Assembly: GCA_963693055.1 (NCBI GenBank)
Contig: OY843751.1
Coordinates: 1,718,252 to 1,782,251, forward strand
Length of the DNA stretch: 64,000 bases
Direction: 5' to 3'
DNA from: a bacterium
GTDB lineage: Bacteria > Zhuqueibacterota > Zhuqueibacteria > Residuimicrobiales > Krinioviventaceae
The position numbers and the translations under genes were made by a program. Of this stretch, positions 7,574-20,847 are shown piece by piece; the stretch's first letter is position 1; each line of letters opens with the position of its first letter. Below the pieces are notes generated by a model. The model was not told the DNA's origin and ran no database searches. It saw only the letters and a list, made by a program, of their open reading frames with translations.

Positions 7574-7720
7574 ATTGGATAAATGATTTGGGGATATATT
7601 GATAAAGTGATTGATTTGATGGATTTTTTTGTTAAGTTGGAATATTGCTATATTCAGGTATGAGGACAAGAACCTCCAGATTATTACATCGGTTTTTATT
7701 GTGAAAATTGTGGATTAATT

Positions 7721-8056
7721 ATGAAATACAATCATATCGGCATTCCGACAAGTGAGCGTTTTGAAGATGAAATTGAAATTCCACATTTGAAAATTACAGT
7801 AAGCGATCACAAAAACAATCCATTCGGAATACAATGGATGCGTTACCGGGACGATGCTCCGTATCCGGATGTCGTTAAATCCATTCCCCATGTGGCATTT
7901 GAAGTCGATGATCTTGATATTGCTTTAAAAGATCAGGAAATTATTATATCACCCAATAGTCCCACACCCGGGGTTATTGTCGCTATGATTTTGGTAAATG
8001 GTGCACCTGTAGAGTTGATGCAAATAAACAGAGCTGTTTACAGGGATGAAATTTAA
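7721..8056 (+). CDS. Small hypothetical protein, possibly glyoxalase/VOC-like
   Basis: 111-aa ORF divergent from tnaA; weak resemblance to VOC-fold proteins (HIGI...PHVAFEVDDLD). Confidence 0.45.
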   Translation: MKYNHIGIPTSERFEDEIEIPHLKITVSDHKNNPFGIQWMRYRDDAPYPDVVKSIPHVAFEVDDLDIALKDQEIIISPNSPTPGVIVAMILVNGAPVELMQINRAVYRDEI

Positions 8057-8138
8057 TGATGGAAATAAACTTGTAACCGATGTGAATTATAATAGTGAGT
8101 AAACCCCGGATGAGATGTCCGGGATTTATATAAAACAA

Positions 8139-9593
8139 TTATTTCATTTCTGCCCGTAAAACATAGCCATATTCTGAAATGCGTTTTGCCGGGAATTGGA
8201 TAGTAAGACCGTCTTTTGTCTGTTGCCAATCTATTTTTTGCTCACTTCCAAGCATGGAAATATTTTTAATTTCAGGAGCATAATCCATTTGATCAGATAG
8301 GGATTTGATGGTTACTGTACCATCATCCGGGCAGACCAGGGCCATAATGTACAAGTTGTTGTCTTTTTGGGTAAACCAGAAATCCTGTTCCTGAAAATCT
8401 GACCTGAATCCATCACGTTTACGTTGAGTCGTACTTTTTATTTCAATTTTTGTGGGACCTTCATGTGTTACATGCTAGGAATGTCTTCCATAAATGGCTT
8501 CGCTGTTGATGGACATCCATTTGCCAATTTCGTGCAACTGGTCGATACTTTCCTGGGGTATGGAACCATCACCTTTGGGACCAATATTGAGCCAATAATT
8601 CCCGCCCTTTCTGGCAATAGCCATAATCCAGTAAATCAATTCTTTGGTGGACTTCCAATCCACATCATAACTTTTATATCCCCAGATATTGTTCAGGGTA
8701 CCGGGAGCTTCCCAGTACACGTCACCGCCTTCTCTGTTATCCGGGATTTTATTGTCACCGGTGACCCAATAATCGCCCCAATCATTACCTACTAGGTTGT
8801 TGACAAGGCAGTTGGGTTGAATATCGTAAATCAGTTTGTAAAATTCAAAACTCTGTTCTTGTGTCATATGATTCGCCATATCGTACCAAATCTCGATGAG
8901 GTTAGGAAGCGTATTTAACAGTTCTACCATTTGCGGTTTGGATTTGACCTCGAGATATTCCTCGAAAGAAACCGGAGAGGGGTCCCACATGTTTGCAGGC
9001 CAGTCTGCCTATTTGCTCGTATCGTCCGGATTTTCCTTTAAATAATTGAGCACACCCGCATTGCCGCCATCCATCTAATCGGTAGAATGTGAATAATAAA
9101 TACCAAAGCGCAGTCCTTGTTTTTCACATTCCTGTGAGAGGGCTTTGATAGGATCGATGTCAAAGGGGGTACTGTCAATAATATCGTAATCCGTTACTTT
9201 TGAATCGTACATTGCAAATCCATCATGGTGCTTGGGCATTGCTATTTCATATCGCATACCTGCGTCTTTTGCCAGTTTGACCCAGGCTTTTGCATCAAAT
9301 TTAACCGGATTGAACTGGCTGCATAATTGTTTGTACTCGTCCCTGGGTATTTACGCGTGGTAAAATATCCATTCACCCAATCCCGGGATCTTTTCTCCCT
9401 GCCAAATACTGGCAGGCATGGAATAGACACCCCAGTGACTAAACATGCTAAATTTATAATCATTAAATTGTTCCAGTGCCTGGCTTTTTGTATCGTGCAT
9501 TGCCTGCCAATCCTGCAATAAAGAATCATCGGCATAAACAAAAGTGCATACAAGAAAGAGTACAAGTATTGCAAATCTTTTAATCATCAACAT
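8139..9593 (-). pseudogene. GH29 alpha-L-fucosidase interrupted by four in-frame stop codons, no frameshift
   Basis: ORF fragments 9351..9593, 9075..9257, 8475..8990, 8139..8354 share one frame; read-through gives a continuous GH29-like protein (signal peptide, [36 protein letters not shown]). Stops at 9351-9353 TAA, 9075-9077 TAG, 9009-9011 TAG, 8475-8477 TAG. Confidence 0.8.
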
Positions 9594-9867: not shown

Positions 9868-12201
9868 ATGTTTAAAAGAATCAGCTTGTTAATCTTGATC
9901 ATTAGCTGCAGTCTTTTAGCGACAACCATTGATGACAAAGTATTGTTTTTGGATGGGGATGGAGATTATCTTCACCTACCGCAACCTATTGTCAATTCCA
10001 GTGCATTTACAATCGAGGGATATGCATATATGAATGGATCCGGAGGAGGTGTCTGGAGCCAGAATCCGTTTTTCCAACAGAGAAGCCCATATCTGGGGGA
10101 TGTTGATAGATCAACTTTGATTTTTGTAACAGAAAACCAACATGGTGAAATCGGTATGGGGGTGGCGTCCATTGGTTATTCTTATCAAGATTATCAGTAT
10201 AATCCCAGAGCCGATTACGGTGAGTGGCACCATTATGCATATGTAATTACCGGAGACAATGTTTGTATTTATCTAGATGGAGTAAAAATATTAGAAGATG
10301 TATGCAATCAACATGGTGATTATACATCAGAGATATATTTCACTGATATTGGTCGTCATACTATGGTTGATACTGATTATGGATTTTTTAATGGAATGCT
10401 AAATGAAATGCGAATTTGGAACAGGGAACTGAGCCAAAGTGAGATCCAGGAATTGAATTTGGGCCCGATTGATCTGGATACATTTGATTCATCTGAAAAA
10501 GGTCTTGTTGCTTATTGGCGTTTTGATGAAATTAAATATCTGGGCACGGAAGATGGTATTGTTCGGAGAATTGCGGATTTATCCGGAAATAACAATACAG
10601 GTACGCTTGTAGATGATGCTGTTATTATTGGTAATACCGAATCGATTAGTGCGAATAAAATCAAAGTAGAATCTGTAATATACAATGAAAATGATGTTGC
10701 GTTTGTTCCAATAAATGTTGATTTTTCTGAAATAACAGGATTTAACACAATCACTTTTAGTATTGAAAAGTCTGACAAGCTGGAACTACTTCAGATCATT
10801 CCTAATTCTCAACTTTTATCCATACCCAATACTGATATTACTTTTGAAAGTGTTGAAAATTCAACGGTGATAACCGTACAATGTAGTGAGCCCATTTTAC
10901 CAAAAGGTCTGCTTGTATGGTTGAAAATGTCTGTTCTTGATAATAACAGTGATTTTATCAATGTTAACCTTGATGCCGCAGAGGTTGGGGGACTTGGTGA
11001 AGCTCCATTGAAAATTTCAGGAGCTGTAGTAAAATCAACTGTAACCAAATCCGGAGACGTATATTACGATGGCATTGTTGATATGAATGATTGCAAAACA
11101 ATACTTGAACATGTATTGGGAATGTATGAAATTGATCCGGATTTGTTTAATGCTGCAGATGTTAATCAGGATGGTTCTATAACATCTCTGGATGCCAGTA
11201 TTATTCTACAATATATTAATGGACTTATTGATAACCTACCGGTGCCTTATACAACCAATATGTACCCCAGCTCAGGTTCTATCAATTTAGGAGATCCCAT
11301 CCCAGGAGCCGGTCAACTTGTTTCGATTCCAATTGTTATGAATCAAGGGGATAATATCTTTTCATTGTTTTGTGAAATAAGCTTTGATAGTGAGAATTAC
11401 ACCTTTAATGGATTTAATATGATTTACAATATCGTTCAATTATATTCACGTGTATCTGACGGTTGTTTAAAATGGAGTTTTGCACTGGCTGAACCTCTTT
11501 CAGGAAATGCTATTTTGGGTTATATGCAATTCACAAAAAATAATGTTGATGCCGGTAGTGCTATACTTGCAAGTGATATTTGCTTGAATGAAATCAATAG
11601 TACCGTCCCGGTAGAAATGTCCTCCTTTACGGCTTATAATGAGGATGGTTGTGTTTTACTCCAGTGGACAACAAAGACAGAAACCAATAATTTGGGATTC
11701 CATTTATATCGGTCAAGTACCTCAGAAGGTCCATGGACAAAAATTAATTCATCTATAATCCCAGGTAATTGCACTTCGTTAATAGAAAATAAATATACAT
11801 TTGTAGACACTGATATTGAAAATTTTTCAAAAGTTTATTATAAAATAGAGCAATTGGATACGGATGGCAGTACAGTTTCTTTTGGCCCCGTGGAACTGGA
11901 AGTTGGAGATGGTACTGTACCTAGTCGTTTTGCATTAAAACAAAATTATCCGAATCCATTTAATTCAAATACAATTATAGAATATAATGTACCCAGATCC
12001 GCTTATGTTAATGTTTCCATTTTTAATACAAGGGGACAATTGGTTAGGGAACTTTTAAATGCCAATCAATCAGCAGGGAATCATGATCTCGTGTGGCATG
12101 GAACTGATCAATTTGGCAATGTGGTCTCTTCCGGTGTTTATTTGGTAAGAATGACCGCGGGGAATTATAATAATACATTAAAAATGCTTTATGTGAAATA
12201 A
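9868..12201 (+). CDS. Secreted T9SS cargo protein with LamG/concanavalin-like domain, dockerin-like repeats and C-terminal T9SS sorting domain
   Basis: 777 aa; signal peptide; LNEMRIWNRELSQSEI (LamG-like); DVNQDGSITSLDASIILQYINGL (dockerin-like); C-terminal LKQNYPNPFNSNTIIEYNVP...GVYLVRM (T9SS type A sorting domain). Confidence 0.8.
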   Translation: MFKRISLLILIISCSLLATTIDDKVLFLDGDGDYLHLPQPIVNSSAFTIEGYAYMNGSGGGVWSQNPFFQQRSPYLGDVDRSTLIFVTENQHGEIGMGVASIGYSYQDYQYNPRADYGEWHHYAYVITGDNVCIYLDGVKILEDVCNQHGDYTSEIYFTDIGRHTMVDTDYGFFNGMLNEMRIWNRELSQSEIQELNLGPIDLDTFDSSEKGLVAYWRFDEIKYLGTEDGIVRRIADLSGNNNTGTLVDDAVIIGNTESISANKIKVESVIYNENDVAFVPINVDFSEITGFNTITFSIEKSDKLELLQIIPNSQLLSIPNTDITFESVENSTVITVQCSEPILPKGLLVWLKMSVLDNNSDFINVNLDAAEVGGLGEAPLKISGAVVKSTVTKSGDVYYDGIVDMNDCKTILEHVLGMYEIDPDLFNAADVNQDGSITSLDASIILQYINGLIDNLPVPYTTNMYPSSGSINLGDPIPGAGQLVSIPIVMNQGDNIFSLFCEISFDSENYTFNGFNMIYNIVQLYSRVSDGCLKWSFALAEPLSGNAILGYMQFTKNNVDAGSAILASDICLNEINSTVPVEMSSFTAYNEDGCVLLQWTTKTETNNLGFHLYRSSTSEGPWTKINSSIIPGNCTSLIENKYTFVDTDIENFSKVYYKIEQLDTDGSTVSFGPVELEVGDGTVPSRFALKQNYPNPFNSNTIIEYNVPRSAYVNVSIFNTRGQLVRELLNANQSAGNHDLVWHGTDQFGNVVSSGVYLVRMTAGNYNNTLKMLYVK

Positions 12202-12415: not shown

Positions 12416-13135
12416 TTATTCATTCAACAAATTTGCAATTTCTTTACTTATTTCATCTGCCAGTTTGTTATAGCCATCCTGATTATAGTGTACATTACCC
12501 TTGGATGCACTATACTTTTCAAGCTCTGGTTCAATCAGGTTATACAAGTCAATAACCGGGATATTGTTTTCTTGCATGATCTTTTTTGCAATATTGTTTC
12601 TATCAATTACAACCTGGTTTTTTTTTGGATCTAACTTTAGATCAGGTTCATCTGACGGGAAGGGAGTTGTCTAGGAATAGACCAGTTTGCAATTTCTGGA
12701 TTTTTCAGATTTAAGAAATTTAACAAATTTTCTCAAGCTCTTTTCATATTGGCTATTGTCAAGATGCTAGCCATGAAGTCCATTATTAAAATGTATTAAT
12801 ACATGGTTTTAATTTGCCATAGCAATTTTTGATTCAATCATCAATGATGGATCTGCAATGGATCTGGATGTGGCGTATCGATCGCAATTGCCTTGCGGCA
12901 GCTTTTCTGAAACTGCTTTATAGTATCCTCTTGAAATAGAATCCCCAATAAACAATACACGGGGCTTTTCTGTATCGGGTTCATTTGCCCACCAGAAATC
13001 GCACCACTCGATTTTTTCACGAATTACTTGTGCTTTCGTGCAACCTGCTATAATAAAACCCGTTAATAATATAAAATAAAGTGTTTTTGAAGAAATTATC
13101 CTGTTCCATTGAAACCCGGGCATCGCGTTTTTCAT
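12416..13135 (-). pseudogene. SGNH/GDSL hydrolase (lipoprotein-type signal) interrupted by three in-frame stop codons, no frameshift
   Basis: N-terminal fragment 12809..13135 has lipobox and RVLFIGDSISRGY block I; reading on in the same frame through TAA (12809-12811), TAG (12767-12769) and TAG (12671-12673) gives ...HVLIHFNNGLHG*HLDN...KLVYS*TTPFP...NVHYNQDGYNKLADEI..., ending at 12416. Confidence 0.75.
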
Positions 13136-13529
13136 TACTTATTCCTTTTAATTGTTAATTTTTCAGTATGTTTAAAAAGGAATAAAATAATTTGATAAAA
13201 ATCAATATAATATTTCATTGAAAAATACAGATCCATTTCAATCAAAATATATATCATTGCATTTTTCCGGTATTTGTGATATACTTACTAGTCACATGAG
13301 ATAATATATGTAAAGGGGGGGTAAATTAATCAAAGACAATATTACTGCATTCTCTGATAAGGTAGTGTAAGGATGGAAATTTATAAATATTAATGCGGGA
13401 AAATTATGATCTGTCTATAAATATTCCGGTTTATACGTTTGAGGCATGAAATATTTTTTAATCAATATCAATGTTTTTAAAAAGATTTAAGAGTAAGTTG
13501 GAATAAAAGATAATAATTTAAGGTACAAT

Positions 13530-14033
13530 GTGACAAAAATTTTTATGTATATATGGATTTTTCTCCTATTAGTAAATTTTATACTTTTATTTGTAAAGAT
13601 GTTTTCTATTTCTGAAACCCATGTTAAATTTGGAATAGGAATTAAATTTCTTTTTTTACATTTTTTTGTTATCATGTCTTTAGGATATTATTTTTCTGTC
13701 ATTGAACCATTTTTTTTGAATGGAAAAGAACCTAATCTGAACGCTACTATTCTGTTGCTATTTTCCATTTTGGGAGTTTATGTTGGATTTAGCTTTCGAT
13801 TTCAATGTAAGGGAAAGTATTATATATGGTTCAACGGCCTATATATTCGAAAAGTATCTTCCGATACCATCAAATATATTATTTTCTATGTGAAAAAGGG
13901 ACAAACACAAAAAATTAAGTTTGTTAGAGATGGAAAGAATATTACTTTTCGATTTGGGAATTATTTTGAATATGTTATTTATAAATTTGCACATGAAAAC
14001 AAAATTCATATAAAAAGAAAAAAATATAGTTGA
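13530..14033 (+). CDS. Orphan hypothetical membrane protein in a very AT-rich island
   Basis: 167-aa ORF with two N-terminal hydrophobic helices and a Lys-rich C-terminal part; strongly AT-rich compared with flanks; followed by its own terminator; start uncertain (GTG 13530 or ATG about 13545). Confidence 0.4.
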   Translation: MTKIFMYIWIFLLLVNFILLFVKMFSISETHVKFGIGIKFLFLHFFVIMSLGYYFSVIEPFFLNGKEPNLNATILLLFSILGVYVGFSFRFQCKGKYYIWFNGLYIRKVSSDTIKYIIFYVKKGQTQKIKFVRDGKNITFRFGNYFEYVIYKFAHENKIHIKRKKYS

Positions 14034-14045
14034 ATTTTAGTATGT

Positions 14046-14073
14046 ATAGATGGCGATTTGTCCATCTTTTTTA
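14046..14073 (+). terminator. Rho-independent terminator after the AT-rich orphan ORF
   Basis: agatgg-cgatttgt-ccatct hairpin followed by a T-run. Confidence 0.55.
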
Positions 14074-14172
14074 GGAAGTGTAAAGATTTTTGTGTAAATC
14101 ATGAACAAGGGTTCAATAACCCGTAGGGTTATTGAATTTCGATCGCTGATTGATTTGCACACACTTTTCCAA

Positions 14173-15505
14173 GGGACTGTAAATTCGCTTGTGTTTTAAA
14201 AACAAATATTACATTTTATTAAATACAGGAGAATTTACCAATGAAACTTACACCTGAAATTATTAAACAACTTGAAAAAGATTTTGAAAATTGCAAGACA
14301 GCAGACGATCTGCTGGGCAAAAATGGTCTGGTCAAGAATTTGATTAAGGGCATATCAGACCAAATTATGGAAGCTGAAATGACCCAGCACTTGGGCTATG
14401 AGAGACATTCTTCAGAAGGTGATAACAGTGGCAATAGTAGAAACGGTCACAGCAGCAAAACAGTGAAGACAGATTTTGGTGAAATTGACATCAAAATCCC
14501 CCGTGATCGGAATGGAGAATTTGACCCGGTACTTGTCAAAAAGCACCAGCGTGATCTGGGCAAAATAGATGAAATTATCGTTGCCTTATATGCCAAAGGT
14601 CTGAGTACAAGAGACATCAAAGACCACCTGGAAACACTTTACGGCCTGGACGCTTCCCCAACATTTATTTCCAATGTTACCGAACGGGTACGCGAGCTTG
14701 TCGTTGAATGGCAGTCAAGACCGTTGGATAGCGTTTATCCTATTGTTTATTTGGATGCTATCCACTATAAGATACGTGACGAAGGGCGTATTATAAACAA
14801 GGCCGCCTATACTGTACTGGGAATCAATGGTGAAGGCTTTAAGGATTTACTTGGTATTTGGATCGACCAGTCCGAGGGCGCCAATTTCTGGCTGTCTGTT
14901 TTAACCGATATACGAAACCGTGGGGTTGAAGATATTCTGATTGCATGCGTAGATGGGCTGAAAGGCTTTCCGGATGCTATTGCCAGCATTTTTCCCGATA
15001 CTGAAGTCCAGCTTTGTATCATCCATCAAATCCGTAACTCGCTTCGTTATGTTGCATCAAAACATCAAAAAGAATTTATCAAAGATCTGAAGCTGGTTTA
15101 TCAAAGCACAACTAAAGAAAACGCTGAACTGCAACTGGATCGCCTTGAACAAAAATGGGGGGTCAAATATCCCATTGTTATCAATTCCTGGAGAAAAAAC
15201 TGGGACAACCTGTCCAACTATTTTAAATATCCCGAAGAAATTCGGCGAATGATCTATACCACAAATAGTGTAGAGGCTCTGCACCGACAGCTTCGCAAAG
15301 TCACTAAAACCAAATCTCTGTTCCCCCACGATGATGCGTTGAAAAAAATGCTGTTTCTGGCCTACAGGGATATTGCTAAAAAATGGTCGCAGCCCATCAG
15401 AAACTGGGCCTTTGTTGTTTCTCAATTTTCTATTATATTTAAAGACAGGATGAAAATCCAAATATAGCACTACTATTCATTTACACAAAAAAGTTTACAG
15501 TCTCC
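14173..15505 (+). mobile_element. IS256-family insertion sequence, about 1.33 kb, with imperfect terminal inverted repeats
   Basis: Left end gggactgtaaattcgcttgtgt (14173-14194) matches the reverse complement of the right end (15483-15505, ggagactgtaaacttttttgtgt); single transposase ORF inside. Boundaries are approximate to a few bp; no clear target-site duplication seen. Confidence 0.7.
14241..15467 (+). CDS. IS256-family (mutator-type) transposase
   Basis: 408 aa with the typical IS256 transposase layout (YLDAIHYKIR, CVDGLKGFPDAI, CIIHQIRNS); RBS aggag upstream. Confidence 0.9.
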   Translation: MKLTPEIIKQLEKDFENCKTADDLLGKNGLVKNLIKGISDQIMEAEMTQHLGYERHSSEGDNSGNSRNGHSSKTVKTDFGEIDIKIPRDRNGEFDPVLVKKHQRDLGKIDEIIVALYAKGLSTRDIKDHLETLYGLDASPTFISNVTERVRELVVEWQSRPLDSVYPIVYLDAIHYKIRDEGRIINKAAYTVLGINGEGFKDLLGIWIDQSEGANFWLSVLTDIRNRGVEDILIACVDGLKGFPDAIASIFPDTEVQLCIIHQIRNSLRYVASKHQKEFIKDLKLVYQSTTKENAELQLDRLEQKWGVKYPIVINSWRKNWDNLSNYFKYPEEIRRMIYTTNSVEALHRQLRKVTKTKSLFPHDDALKKMLFLAYRDIAKKWSQPIRNWAFVVSQFSIIFKDRMKIQI

Positions 15506-15633
15506 TTTTTTATTTTTCATTAATTAGTTATATTTGATTTTTGTTTGATTATAGATTTATTCTCATTCTCAATCCTGAATAATATTGTATTTTCAGGCGT
15601 TTGTGATATACTATTTAAAAGTATTGAGGAAAG

Positions 15634-17283
15634 ATGAATACCGGAGCTGTATTACTTATCCATAAAAATGATAATGTTGCAGTGGCTCTGCGGCCACTTG
15701 TGGCAGGGGAGCGTGTCAATGCTGGGGATAAATCTGTTATTATAAAAAATGATATTCCTGCCAAGCATTCTATTGCTTTGCGGGACATGCCTGCATCAAA
15801 TCCTATAATTATGCACGGTATTTTGGTTGGCGAGACGACTTGTCCTGTTAAATCCGGAGAGCGTTTAGGTACACATAATCTCGTGCACAAGACCGCAGGG
15901 TTCGAGTATCGCGGAGTTGTGCAGCAATGGACGCCACCGGATGTGTCTACTCTGCAGGATTTAACCTTTATAGGCTATATGCGTAAAAATGGTTCTGTGG
16001 GTACGGCTAATAACTGGATTGTGGCGCCGCTGGTGTTTTGTGAAAATGAAAATATCCTGAAACTGAAAACGGCTTTTGAGGCTATTAACGGACTGCACGG
16101 ACGATCCCGACACCGTCAGCTTGCAGACCAGTTGTCCCATGCCTGGAGCTCCGGTACGAGTGTGGATGAATTGACATCACTTGATTTTACCTACAGTGCA
16201 GAATCTAACCAGTCCCTTTTCCCGAATGTGGACGGTATCAAGTTTCTTACGCATGAATCCGGTTGCGGTGGAACACGTAAAGACGCACATGATTTGTGCG
16301 CTCTTTTGGCGGGATACATCACGCATCCCAATACCGCCGGGGCGACTATACTCAGCCTGGGCTGCCAGAACGCTCAGATACTGGACTTATATGAAGCAAT
16401 TCATGCGCATGATCCTCAATTCAACAAACCTTTGTATATACTGGACCAGCAGCAGTACGGAAGGAGTGAATATTTGCTGGATGACGCTGTGTGTAAAACG
16501 TTTGCGGGACTCGTTGAGGCGAACGAAGCAGAACGGCAACCTGTACCTGTCAACAAACTGGTGATTGGTGTAGAGTGTGGAGGCTCTGACGGATTTTCCG
16601 GTATAACCGCTAATCCATTAATGGGCCGTATTGCTGACAGGATTGTCGCTGTTGGGGGCAGCGTGATTCTGGGCGAATTTCCCGAGTTTGGAGGTGCAGA
16701 GCAATCCCTGATCGATCGCTGCATGGATAAAGAGACAGCAGAACGGTTTATTAAGTTGTATCGGGATTATGAAGCGCGAGCCCGTTCGGTAGGTGCGGGA
16801 TTCGATATGAATCCGTCACCAGGTAACATTCGAGAAGGATTAATCACTGACGCCATGAAATCCGCCGGAGCAGTAACAAAAGGCGGCACATCGCCGGTAA
16901 CAGATATTCTTGATTATCCGGAATATGTTACTAAAGAAGGACTCAGTTTGCTGTTGACCCCGGGCAACGATGTGGAATCCACAACCGCGCTGGTAGCTGC
17001 CGGGGCAAATGTAGTGCTGTTCTCAACAGGACTCGGAACGCCCACGGGGAACCCAATTGTACCAGTGATCAAGATTGCCAGTAACACGCAGACTGCGCGA
17101 CGTATGGCAGATATCATTGATTTTGACGCTGGCGGGTTAATTGACGGGGGAAAATCCATGGAAGCATTGGCAGATGAATTGATCCAAATGATTATCAATA
17201 CTGCCGGTGGAGAGTATAATCCCAAAGCTGTACAAAACCACCAGGATGATTTTATCCCATGGAAGCGGGATGTTTCGTTGTAA
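15634..17283 (+). CDS. uxaA: Altronate dehydratase / galactarate dehydratase family (SAF domain plus D-galactarate dehydratase/altronate hydrolase C-terminal domain)
   Basis: 549 aa; N-terminal SAF-like segment, central HESGCGG and C-terminal FSTGLGTPTGNPIVPVIKI motifs typical of UxaA/GarD. Confidence 0.8.
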   Translation: MNTGAVLLIHKNDNVAVALRPLVAGERVNAGDKSVIIKNDIPAKHSIALRDMPASNPIIMHGILVGETTCPVKSGERLGTHNLVHKTAGFEYRGVVQQWTPPDVSTLQDLTFIGYMRKNGSVGTANNWIVAPLVFCENENILKLKTAFEAINGLHGRSRHRQLADQLSHAWSSGTSVDELTSLDFTYSAESNQSLFPNVDGIKFLTHESGCGGTRKDAHDLCALLAGYITHPNTAGATILSLGCQNAQILDLYEAIHAHDPQFNKPLYILDQQQYGRSEYLLDDAVCKTFAGLVEANEAERQPVPVNKLVIGVECGGSDGFSGITANPLMGRIADRIVAVGGSVILGEFPEFGGAEQSLIDRCMDKETAERFIKLYRDYEARARSVGAGFDMNPSPGNIREGLITDAMKSAGAVTKGGTSPVTDILDYPEYVTKEGLSLLLTPGNDVESTTALVAAGANVVLFSTGLGTPTGNPIVPVIKIASNTQTARRMADIIDFDAGGLIDGGKSMEALADELIQMIINTAGGEYNPKAVQNHQDDFIPWKRDVSL

Positions 17284-20130: not shown

Positions 20131-20847
20131 CTAGTTTTTACCGCCTTTGCCTCTTGAAGGTGTTGAATCATCAGAGCGTCCAAAACCTACTGTGGTATTT
20201 GTTGCTCCACGTCCCAGACAATCTTCCGGGCGGACCCAATCAGAGTCCTGACCATTGGGGATACCGTCACTGTCATCATCCGGTGCATTGTCGTTGATTC
20301 CATCACCGTCTTCGTCAACAAATGCATGCATGCTGCGACCTTTGCCATTGCCAAAACCGCTTTTGCCGCCAGCTGCTACGTAATCAGCATCCTGACCATT
20401 TGGGATTCCATCACCATCAGCATCAGGTGCATTGTCATTATATCCGTCACCATCTTCGTCTACAAAACTATTTGCGCCTTGTTTCTGACCATTTCCTGCG
20501 GCACTACCCTGACCAGCTTGTGCTACATAATCTTCATCCATGCCATTGGGGATTCCATCGCCATCTGCATCCGGTGCATTGTCGTTATAGCCGTCACCAT
20601 CTTCGTCTACAAAGCCTTCACCGGAAATACCCTGACCATAGCCGGAACCTGTACGGACATAATCTTCATCCATACCATTGGGAATTCCATCGCCATCAGC
20701 GTCCGGGGCATTGTCATTGTAGCCATCACCATTGAGGTCCACAAATTTTACACCATGTTCAGCGGTTTGTGAAAATACAGAGGTACTTGCAAATGCTGTC
20801 ATTGCCAAAGCAAGAAGCAGAACGGATAATGTTTTTGATGTTTTCAT
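20131..20847 (-). CDS. Secreted protein built of four tandem thrombospondin type 3-like calcium-binding repeats
   Basis: Signal peptide, then four copies of FVDEDGDGYNDNAPDADGDGIPNG(M/Q)D(E/A)DYV separated by Gly-rich linkers. Confidence 0.7.
   Translation of the reverse strand: MKTSKTLSVLLLALAMTAFASTSVFSQTAEHGVKFVDLNGDGYNDNAPDADGDGIPNGMDEDYVRTGSGYGQGISGEGFVDEDGDGYNDNAPDADGDGIPNGMDEDYVAQAGQGSAAGNGQKQGANSFVDEDGDGYNDNAPDADGDGIPNGQDADYVAAGGKSGFGNGKGRSMHAFVDEDGDGINDNAPDDDSDGIPNGQDSDWVRPEDCLGRGATNTTVGFGRSDDSTPSRGKGGKN
20255..20770. repeat. Four tandem DNA repeats of about 130-150 bp encoding the calcium-binding repeat units
   Basis: Near-identical blocks (ggattccatcrccatcwgcatcmggtgcattgtcrttrtakccgtcaccatcttcgtctacaaa) recur at roughly 20260, 20400, 20550 and 20680. 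Confidence 0.7.

Follow-up and report, generated by a model that had tools for sequence, protein, structure and literature searches.

Probable recent inactivation by point mutation of an SGNH hydrolase gene and a nearby α-L-fucosidase gene carrying in-frame stop codons in an uncultured bacterium

The Locus and Its Neighbourhood

The window, by which we mean the whole 64-kb stretch of DNA of an uncultured bacterium that was analysed, has a coding share of 88%, and the nearest named homologues come from KSB1 and Bacteroidota. The genes considered here (Table 1) lie in a neighbourhood devoted to pectin, uronate and fucose utilisation, which comprises a β-helix pectate-lyase-like protein, an altronate dehydratase, a cargo protein, a fucosidase and an esterase. 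In-frame stop codons, seven in total, are confined to two of the approximately 52 genes of the window, those for the fucosidase and for the SGNH/GDSL hydrolase, and both adjoin lineage-specific structural changes. The T9SS cargo gene that separates the two, originally described as intact, is indeed uninterrupted. No tRNA gene and no Rfam element was found in the 64-kb window, and a search around the SGNH gene for RNA elements, tRNAs and promoter or terminator signals gave nothing over background. The GC skew of the plus strand is persistently positive between 10000 and 50000 (its cumulative value climbs from 0 to ~2.1 and is flat after ~48 kb), a profile that fits a leading-strand role for the plus strand across most of the window.

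Table 1. Coordinates of the features discussed (positions in the window).
Feature	Position	Strand	Description
GH29 α-L-fucosidase, probable pseudogene	8139..9587	minus	four in-frame stops, ~10 missense changes at conserved columns
T9SS cargo gene, intact	9868..12201	plus	777 aa (Laminin_G_3, dockerin, Por_Secre_tail); between both probable pseudogenes; control
SGNH/GDSL hydrolase lipoprotein, probable pseudogene	12416..13135	minus	translation; Pfam PF13472 and PF00657; 92% identity to P0001; gapless DNA alignment
In-frame TAG, codon 155	12671..12673	minus	sister TTG (Leu, 98% conserved)
In-frame TAG, codon 123	12767..12769	minus	sister TGG (Trp, 95% conserved); context T[G]GCA
In-frame TAA, codon 109	12809..12811	minus	sister TAT (Tyr); Tyr in 100% of 62 outgroup homologues
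Codon 13, ATA	13097..13099	minus	sister ATG; homologue N-termini at alignment columns 13-16
Insertion of ~2.3 kb	13286..15589	plus	absent from sister; 150 nt upstream of SGNH start
Altronate dehydratase gene, intact	15634..17283	plus	relative-rate control

The first of the structural changes, the insertion upstream of the SGNH gene, contains a transposase gene of the IS256 family at 14241-15467 (Pfam E 2e-120, NCBIfam E 1.6e-128), and the inverted repeats of the element are found at 14079-14099 and 15479-15499. The whole insertion is flanked by an imperfect direct repeat of 23 nt (13263-13285 and 15590-15612), much longer than the target duplication of 8-9 bp that is typical of IS256. It also holds a partial extra IS left end at ~13544-13604 and an AT-rich ORF of 167 aa (13530-14033) that matches no family. 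The second change lies 3' of the fucosidase, where 460 nt of window sequence (7639-8101) stand in place of an unrelated segment of the sister locus described below (L001 15050-16070). Neither the 111-aa ORF of the window segment (7721-8056, plus strand) nor the 187-aa gene of the sister segment has a match in Pfam or NCBIfam.

A Syntenic Sister Genome

A scan of a genome collection returned a single close relative, a bacterial MAG referred to here as the sister, whose contig CAXXMD010000001.1 holds the DNA encoding the closest SGNH homologue, P0001 (locus L001, the same contig as L002); a metagenome scan yielded relatives at 37-38% identity only. Window and sister are syntenic over ~20 kb at ~86% nucleotide identity, and in the sister both the SGNH and the fucosidase genes are present in the same context and intact. 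None of the seven stops has a counterpart in this MAG, the sole close relative found, which has sense codons at all seven orthologous positions.

Divergence from the sister is uneven along the locus. The SGNH gene together with 150 nt upstream (12416-13285) is 93-97% identical to the sister, while its surroundings are 74-90% identical, and the dS of the gene is 0.14, compared with 0.33-0.98 for most neighbours. These values hint at a fairly recent recombination between the two lineages, limited to this segment; if such an exchange took place, the three SGNH stops would therefore be younger still. Elsewhere, the hypothetical gene at 20131-20847 encodes 238 aa for which the sister annotation lists no Pfam hit. 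Its dS is likewise unusually low (0.18), its nucleotide identity to the sister reaches 95%, and blastn aligns it internally a second time (75.8% over 389 nt), which suggests an internal repeat.

The SGNH Hydrolase Frame

Translated on the minus strand, positions 13135 to 12416 form a frame of 240 codons, including the terminal TAA at 12416-12418. When its stops are masked, the product matches Pfam PF13472 (Lipase_GDSL_2) with 35.1 bits, above the gathering score of 32.9, and it also matches PF00657. It has 74 database homologues, the best of which (P0001, E 4e-147) is an intact protein of 239 aa that is 92% identical to the masked product. The DNA alignment with the sister (L001 10001-10720) covers 720 nt with zero gaps and 38 mismatches, distributed 8/8/22 over the three codon positions. 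The homology E-values and this codon-position pattern place the frame far from chance. Thus, the original prediction was right that a single minus-strand frame spells out a complete SGNH hydrolase, and right also that it has no frameshift, the C-terminal part included. Hidden or compensated frameshifts are excluded by the gapless alignments of 720 nt here and 1449 nt in the fucosidase and by the 92% amino-acid identity, which extends from end to end; the gaps that blastn places in the fucosidase are alignment artefacts and not real indels.

The predicted lipoprotein start was also found: the signal ends in IIAGC, with Cys32 as the lipoprotein cysteine. Alignment of the homologues revealed invariant columns at S66 (within FIGDSIS), N117/N118 (HFNNG) and H216 (GNVHY), which we take to be the catalytic Ser of the GDS block, the Asn of block III and the His of block V, respectively, and all of them are kept in the window copy. 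Nevertheless, no uninterrupted ORF covers the whole SGNH domain, since the frame is broken at codons 109, 123 and 155, by the very TAA and two TAG codons that had been predicted (Table 1), and the longest ORF has 108 aa.

Each of these stops is one base away from the sister codon (TAT>TAA, TGG>TAG and TTG>TAG). The original prediction had raised the question of whether they replace Trp or Gln codons; in the homologue alignment, in which the conservation of the three columns was calculated from 62 more distant homologues, they stand at Tyr109, Trp123 and Leu155, that is, at three different residues. A fourth lesion may be the change of ATG to ATA at codon 13, by which the native start codon would have been lost, as most homologues begin near Met13. 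Beyond the three stops, the amino-acid changes derived in the window lineage are V82G, K147R and K228E, against one sister-derived change. The window copy has no missense change at any of the 98 conserved columns of the protein, and 3' of the last stop the codon differences from the sister are mostly synonymous (12 versus 4 non-synonymous).

The Fucosidase Gene

The fucosidase frame, 3 kb away, had been said to show the same pattern, and it does contain four in-frame stops and no indel in the 1449 nt aligned with the sister. One is a TAA at 9351-9353, derived from CAA (Gln79), and the others are TAG codons at 9075-9077, 9009-9011 and 8475-8477, derived from TGG and replacing Trp171, Trp193 and Trp371. 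Consequently, all seven stops of the locus are single-nucleotide changes from sister sense codons, and they replace Tyr, Trp, Leu and Gln.

Polarisation of the differences assigned 20 changes to the window lineage and 2 to the sister. At the columns conserved to at least 90% in 59 outgroups, 12 states are window-derived and none sister-derived. The changes at conserved columns are G47S, I50S, G60S, S264N, R265L, T301I, S326R, L332W, T368R and W419C, together with three of the stops, the fourth (Gln79) falling in a column that is 58% conserved. The notion of a special "nonsense-only" phenomenon finds no support in view of these ~10 lineage-specific missense changes at highly conserved positions, the phrase being true with respect to frameshifts only. 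Similarly, the statement that the stops are the only defects stands insofar as there is no frameshift, and fails in view of the SGNH change at codon 13 and of the conserved-site substitutions of the fucosidase.

Selection Tests and Their Controls

Pairwise dN/dS was calculated by the Nei-Gojobori method between window and sister, with stop codons left out. The values were 0.21 for SGNH and 0.08 for the fucosidase, both inside the range of thirteen intact neighbours (0.007-0.21), so any neutral phase would have been short; by themselves they would point to continuing selection on both genes. Pairwise dN/dS averages both lineages and the whole divergence time, and a relative-rate test was also carried out, in which the amino-acid differences between window and sister were polarised by outgroup homologues and intact neighbours served as controls. 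The altronate dehydratase gave 9 window-derived and 12 sister-derived changes, and the cargo protein 12 and 17; the latter was split into its N- and C-terminal parts because its outgroups are only up to 38% identical.

The pooled controls (21:29) are therefore symmetric, and the 20:2 of the fucosidase differs from them with a Fisher p of 9e-5 (7e-4 for missense only). Because of this asymmetry against symmetric control genes, the fucosidase has been evolving without constraint in the window lineage, that is, under lineage-specific relaxed selection, and is not a maintained gene with tolerated stops. For SGNH, the corresponding figures are 6:1 with the stops included (p=0.045) and 3:1 for missense only (p=0.31), and the case for decay of this gene by itself would rest mainly on the stops. 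A generally fast-evolving or degrading genome can be dismissed, considering the coding share of the window, its 50 intact genes and the symmetry of the two controls. As a caution on method, pairwise dN/dS missed the decay, while the polarised test on conserved columns with neighbour controls exposed it clearly in the fucosidase.

Mutation Spectrum and the Excess of Stops

Polarisation assigned 34 base changes to the window lineage, 14 of them G:C>A:T. With 21 TGG codons and 26 CAA, CAG or CGA codons in the fucosidase, the share of nonsense among non-synonymous GC>AT hits would be 15.6% in that gene and 10.2% in SGNH, as against 6.7-6.8% under a flat spectrum. Weighted by the observed missense spectrum, the expected ratio of nonsense to missense is 0.10 for the fucosidase and 0.08 for SGNH. 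The fucosidase, with 4 nonsense changes among 15 damaging hits (nonsense plus missense at conserved columns), is unremarkable in this respect (P=0.33). SGNH, with 3 nonsense and 0 conserved-column missense changes, gives a conditional P of ~0.005, and the two genes jointly a P of 0.035, both values being post hoc, as the locus was picked for its many stops. The SGNH excess is counted as mild because these P values were obtained post hoc on a stop-selected locus; it is a mild residual and not evidence for another mechanism. GC>AT-biased mutation acting on a sequence rich in Trp and Gln codons probably explains most of the "nonsense-only" appearance.

All four changes from Trp to stop produced TAG and none TGA (two-sided p=0.125). 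There is no indel in either frame (2.17 kb), while the aligned non-coding DNA shows ~0.2 gap events per substitution, a ratio inflated by AT-rich homopolymers and by the gap placement of blastn (50 gap openings within equal-length genes); the absence of indels is somewhat low if that ratio is applied. Among the polarised non-synonymous changes, G>A outnumbers C>T by 12 to 2. Strand-specific hypermutation was considered and discarded: over all sites of the fucosidase, C>T (24) and G>A (20, both in plus-strand terms) are balanced, and neighbours are similar. Therefore, the 12:2 asymmetry reflects codon structure.

Interpretation and Alternatives

Taken together, the SGNH and fucosidase frames are very probably recently inactivated pseudogenes, disabled by ordinary point mutation, with their stops read as stops. 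In the model proposed, an esterase and a fucosidase, both accessory enzymes of glycan degradation, would no longer be needed, or no longer be expressed, in this lineage; purifying selection would have lapsed, and ordinary point mutations with a G:C>A:T skew would have built up. As codons a single step away from a stop (TGG, CAA/CAG, TAT and TTG) abound in both genes, about one nonsense mutation per ten missense mutations would be generated. The longest SGNH product would then be an N-terminal fragment of 108 residues, predicted to be inactive because the Asn of block III and the His of block V are missing. SGNH may be decaying for the same reason as the fucosidase, a shift in niche or substrate may have preceded the loss of function, and the IS256-family insertion may belong to the same episode of local erosion.

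A change in the meaning of the stop codons does not account for the data. The code in the window is standard, because its 50 non-overlapping intact genes end in TAA (31), TAG (10) or TGA (9), TAA and TAG thus closing 41 of the 50. Codon reassignment can be discarded, as both TAA and TAG are involved, TAG aligning with Trp (four times) and Leu and TAA with Tyr and Gln, so that four amino acids are replaced in just two genes while termination is normal elsewhere. Another possibility is that the SGNH gene is still functional, its stops limiting or gating expression and being decoded with the help of a suppressor tRNA, through near-cognate read-through or through some conditional factor, for instance one supplied by a recoded phage; it would then be a "pseudo-pseudogene". 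Belinky et al. (2021, PMC7918605) have argued that purifying selection preserves some in-frame stops of bacteria, with carbohydrate metabolism among the categories richest in them, and, according to Feng et al. (2022, PMC9122581), pseudogenes can give low-level protein. The SGNH copy would fit in that it keeps every invariant residue save at the stops, lacks conserved-column missense, differs mostly synonymously 3' of the last stop and shows the post hoc nonsense excess mentioned above. However, the penalties of read-through would be multiplied in a gene with three stops of two kinds, and these stops replace three different residues; the same codons terminate most neighbouring genes, and no suppressor tRNA is encoded within the window. 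Moreover, the case for function made by Belinky et al. rests on orthologous stops shared between species, and those found here are not common to the sister; and the fucosidase, with a like pattern, has suffered ~10 damaging conserved-site substitutions and is clearly not maintained. Continued function by read-through is, in our judgement, extremely improbable. The stops could otherwise be errors of sequencing or assembly in genes that are really intact, as poor assemblies are a documented source of internal-stop "pseudogenes" (PMC11017572) and the lack of indels fits errors of the substitution type. Random errors would be scattered, but here seven stops fall within 2.17 kb while the 50 genes that make up the other ~54 kb of coding sequence have no interruption; the fucosidase also has an excess of lineage-specific missense with a biological spectrum (GC>AT), and the neighbours diverge normally and symmetrically. 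An artefact is thus highly unlikely, only marginally less so than read-through.

A further alternative retains the pseudogene interpretation and adds that deamination of methylated C at 5'-TGC[C]A-3' raised the share of nonsense by converting TGG-CAx into amber codons. Classical precedent exists in the E. coli lacI gene, in which 5-methylcytosines at CCAGG sites are amber hotspots. At this locus, the two interrupted genes contain 8 sites of the motif T[G]GCA, which was chosen post hoc, and 3 of these have become TAGCA (SGNH W123*, fucosidase W371* and fucosidase G47S at ~9447-9449); by comparison, ~5.5% of the other G sites in these genes have changed, and 0 of the 23 T[G]GCA sites in the rest of the 17-kb alignment of window and sister. 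In addition, a G[G] context is shared by 9 of the 12 non-synonymous G>A changes derived in the window, compared with a baseline of 28.5% (P=0.001; for missense changes by themselves, 5 of 8, P=0.047). Against this proposal, the numbers are tiny, 4 of the 12 G>A events are the very stops for which the locus was selected, and the two stops due to T>A are left unexplained. Besides, the synonymous sites of the intact neighbours show no hotspot in GG/CC context, nor do all differences pooled, and a general hotspot of that kind is unsupported. A contribution of such a hotspot is unlikely, although less so than the two alternatives above. The stronger claim, either that the SGNH gene is conditionally expressed via UAA/UAG suppression, for instance in the presence of a supplied suppressor tRNA, or that its stops were written by sequence-specific cytosine deamination at TGC[C]A / C[C], due to a hotspot of methylation or to a deaminase, with a preference for turning Trp into amber, is very hard to credit.

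Recent pseudogenisation by ordinary point mutation thus being the preferred reading, both frames should be annotated as pseudogenes and not as evidence for recoding. They would represent a recent, lineage-specific loss of predicted esterase and fucosidase activities in an uncultured bacterium. The case would acquire wider interest only if the lack of conserved-site missense in SGNH were meaningful and the T[G]GCA hotspot real.

Comparison with Known Systems

Several known systems resemble this locus to different degrees. Stop-codon reassignment, which occurs in recoded phages and some bacteria in forms such as code 15 (TAG>Gln) and code 4 (TGA>Trp), likewise yields several in-frame stops in an otherwise well-conserved frame. 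It differs in that two stop types and four amino acids are affected here, in 2 of ~52 genes, and in that the same codons terminate genes across the window. The lacI 5-methylcytosine hotspots are alike in the G:C>A:T changes that create TAG, with T[G]GCA recurring here at 3 of 12 G>A events; T[G]GCA, however, is no known Dcm site, and it is a candidate motif with post hoc statistics. "Pseudo-pseudogenes", as described by Belinky et al. (PMC7918605) and Feng et al. (PMC9122581), also combine in-frame stops with a remaining sequence that still looks selected, but in those accounts they usually have one stop, whose conservation across species is the ground for proposing a function, in contrast with the three or four per gene found here, none of them in the sister.

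The closest counterpart is provided by ordinary nonsense pseudogenes under AT-biased mutation, with which the locus shares single-base, lineage-specific stops, accessory carbohydrate genes, a nearby IS and, in the fucosidase, an excess of non-synonymous changes at conserved sites. It departs from them in that neither gene has a frameshift and in that the nonsense to missense ratio of SGNH is somewhat above expectation, both of which small numbers and case selection can produce. In sum, the two genes add one more example to a familiar class of feature.
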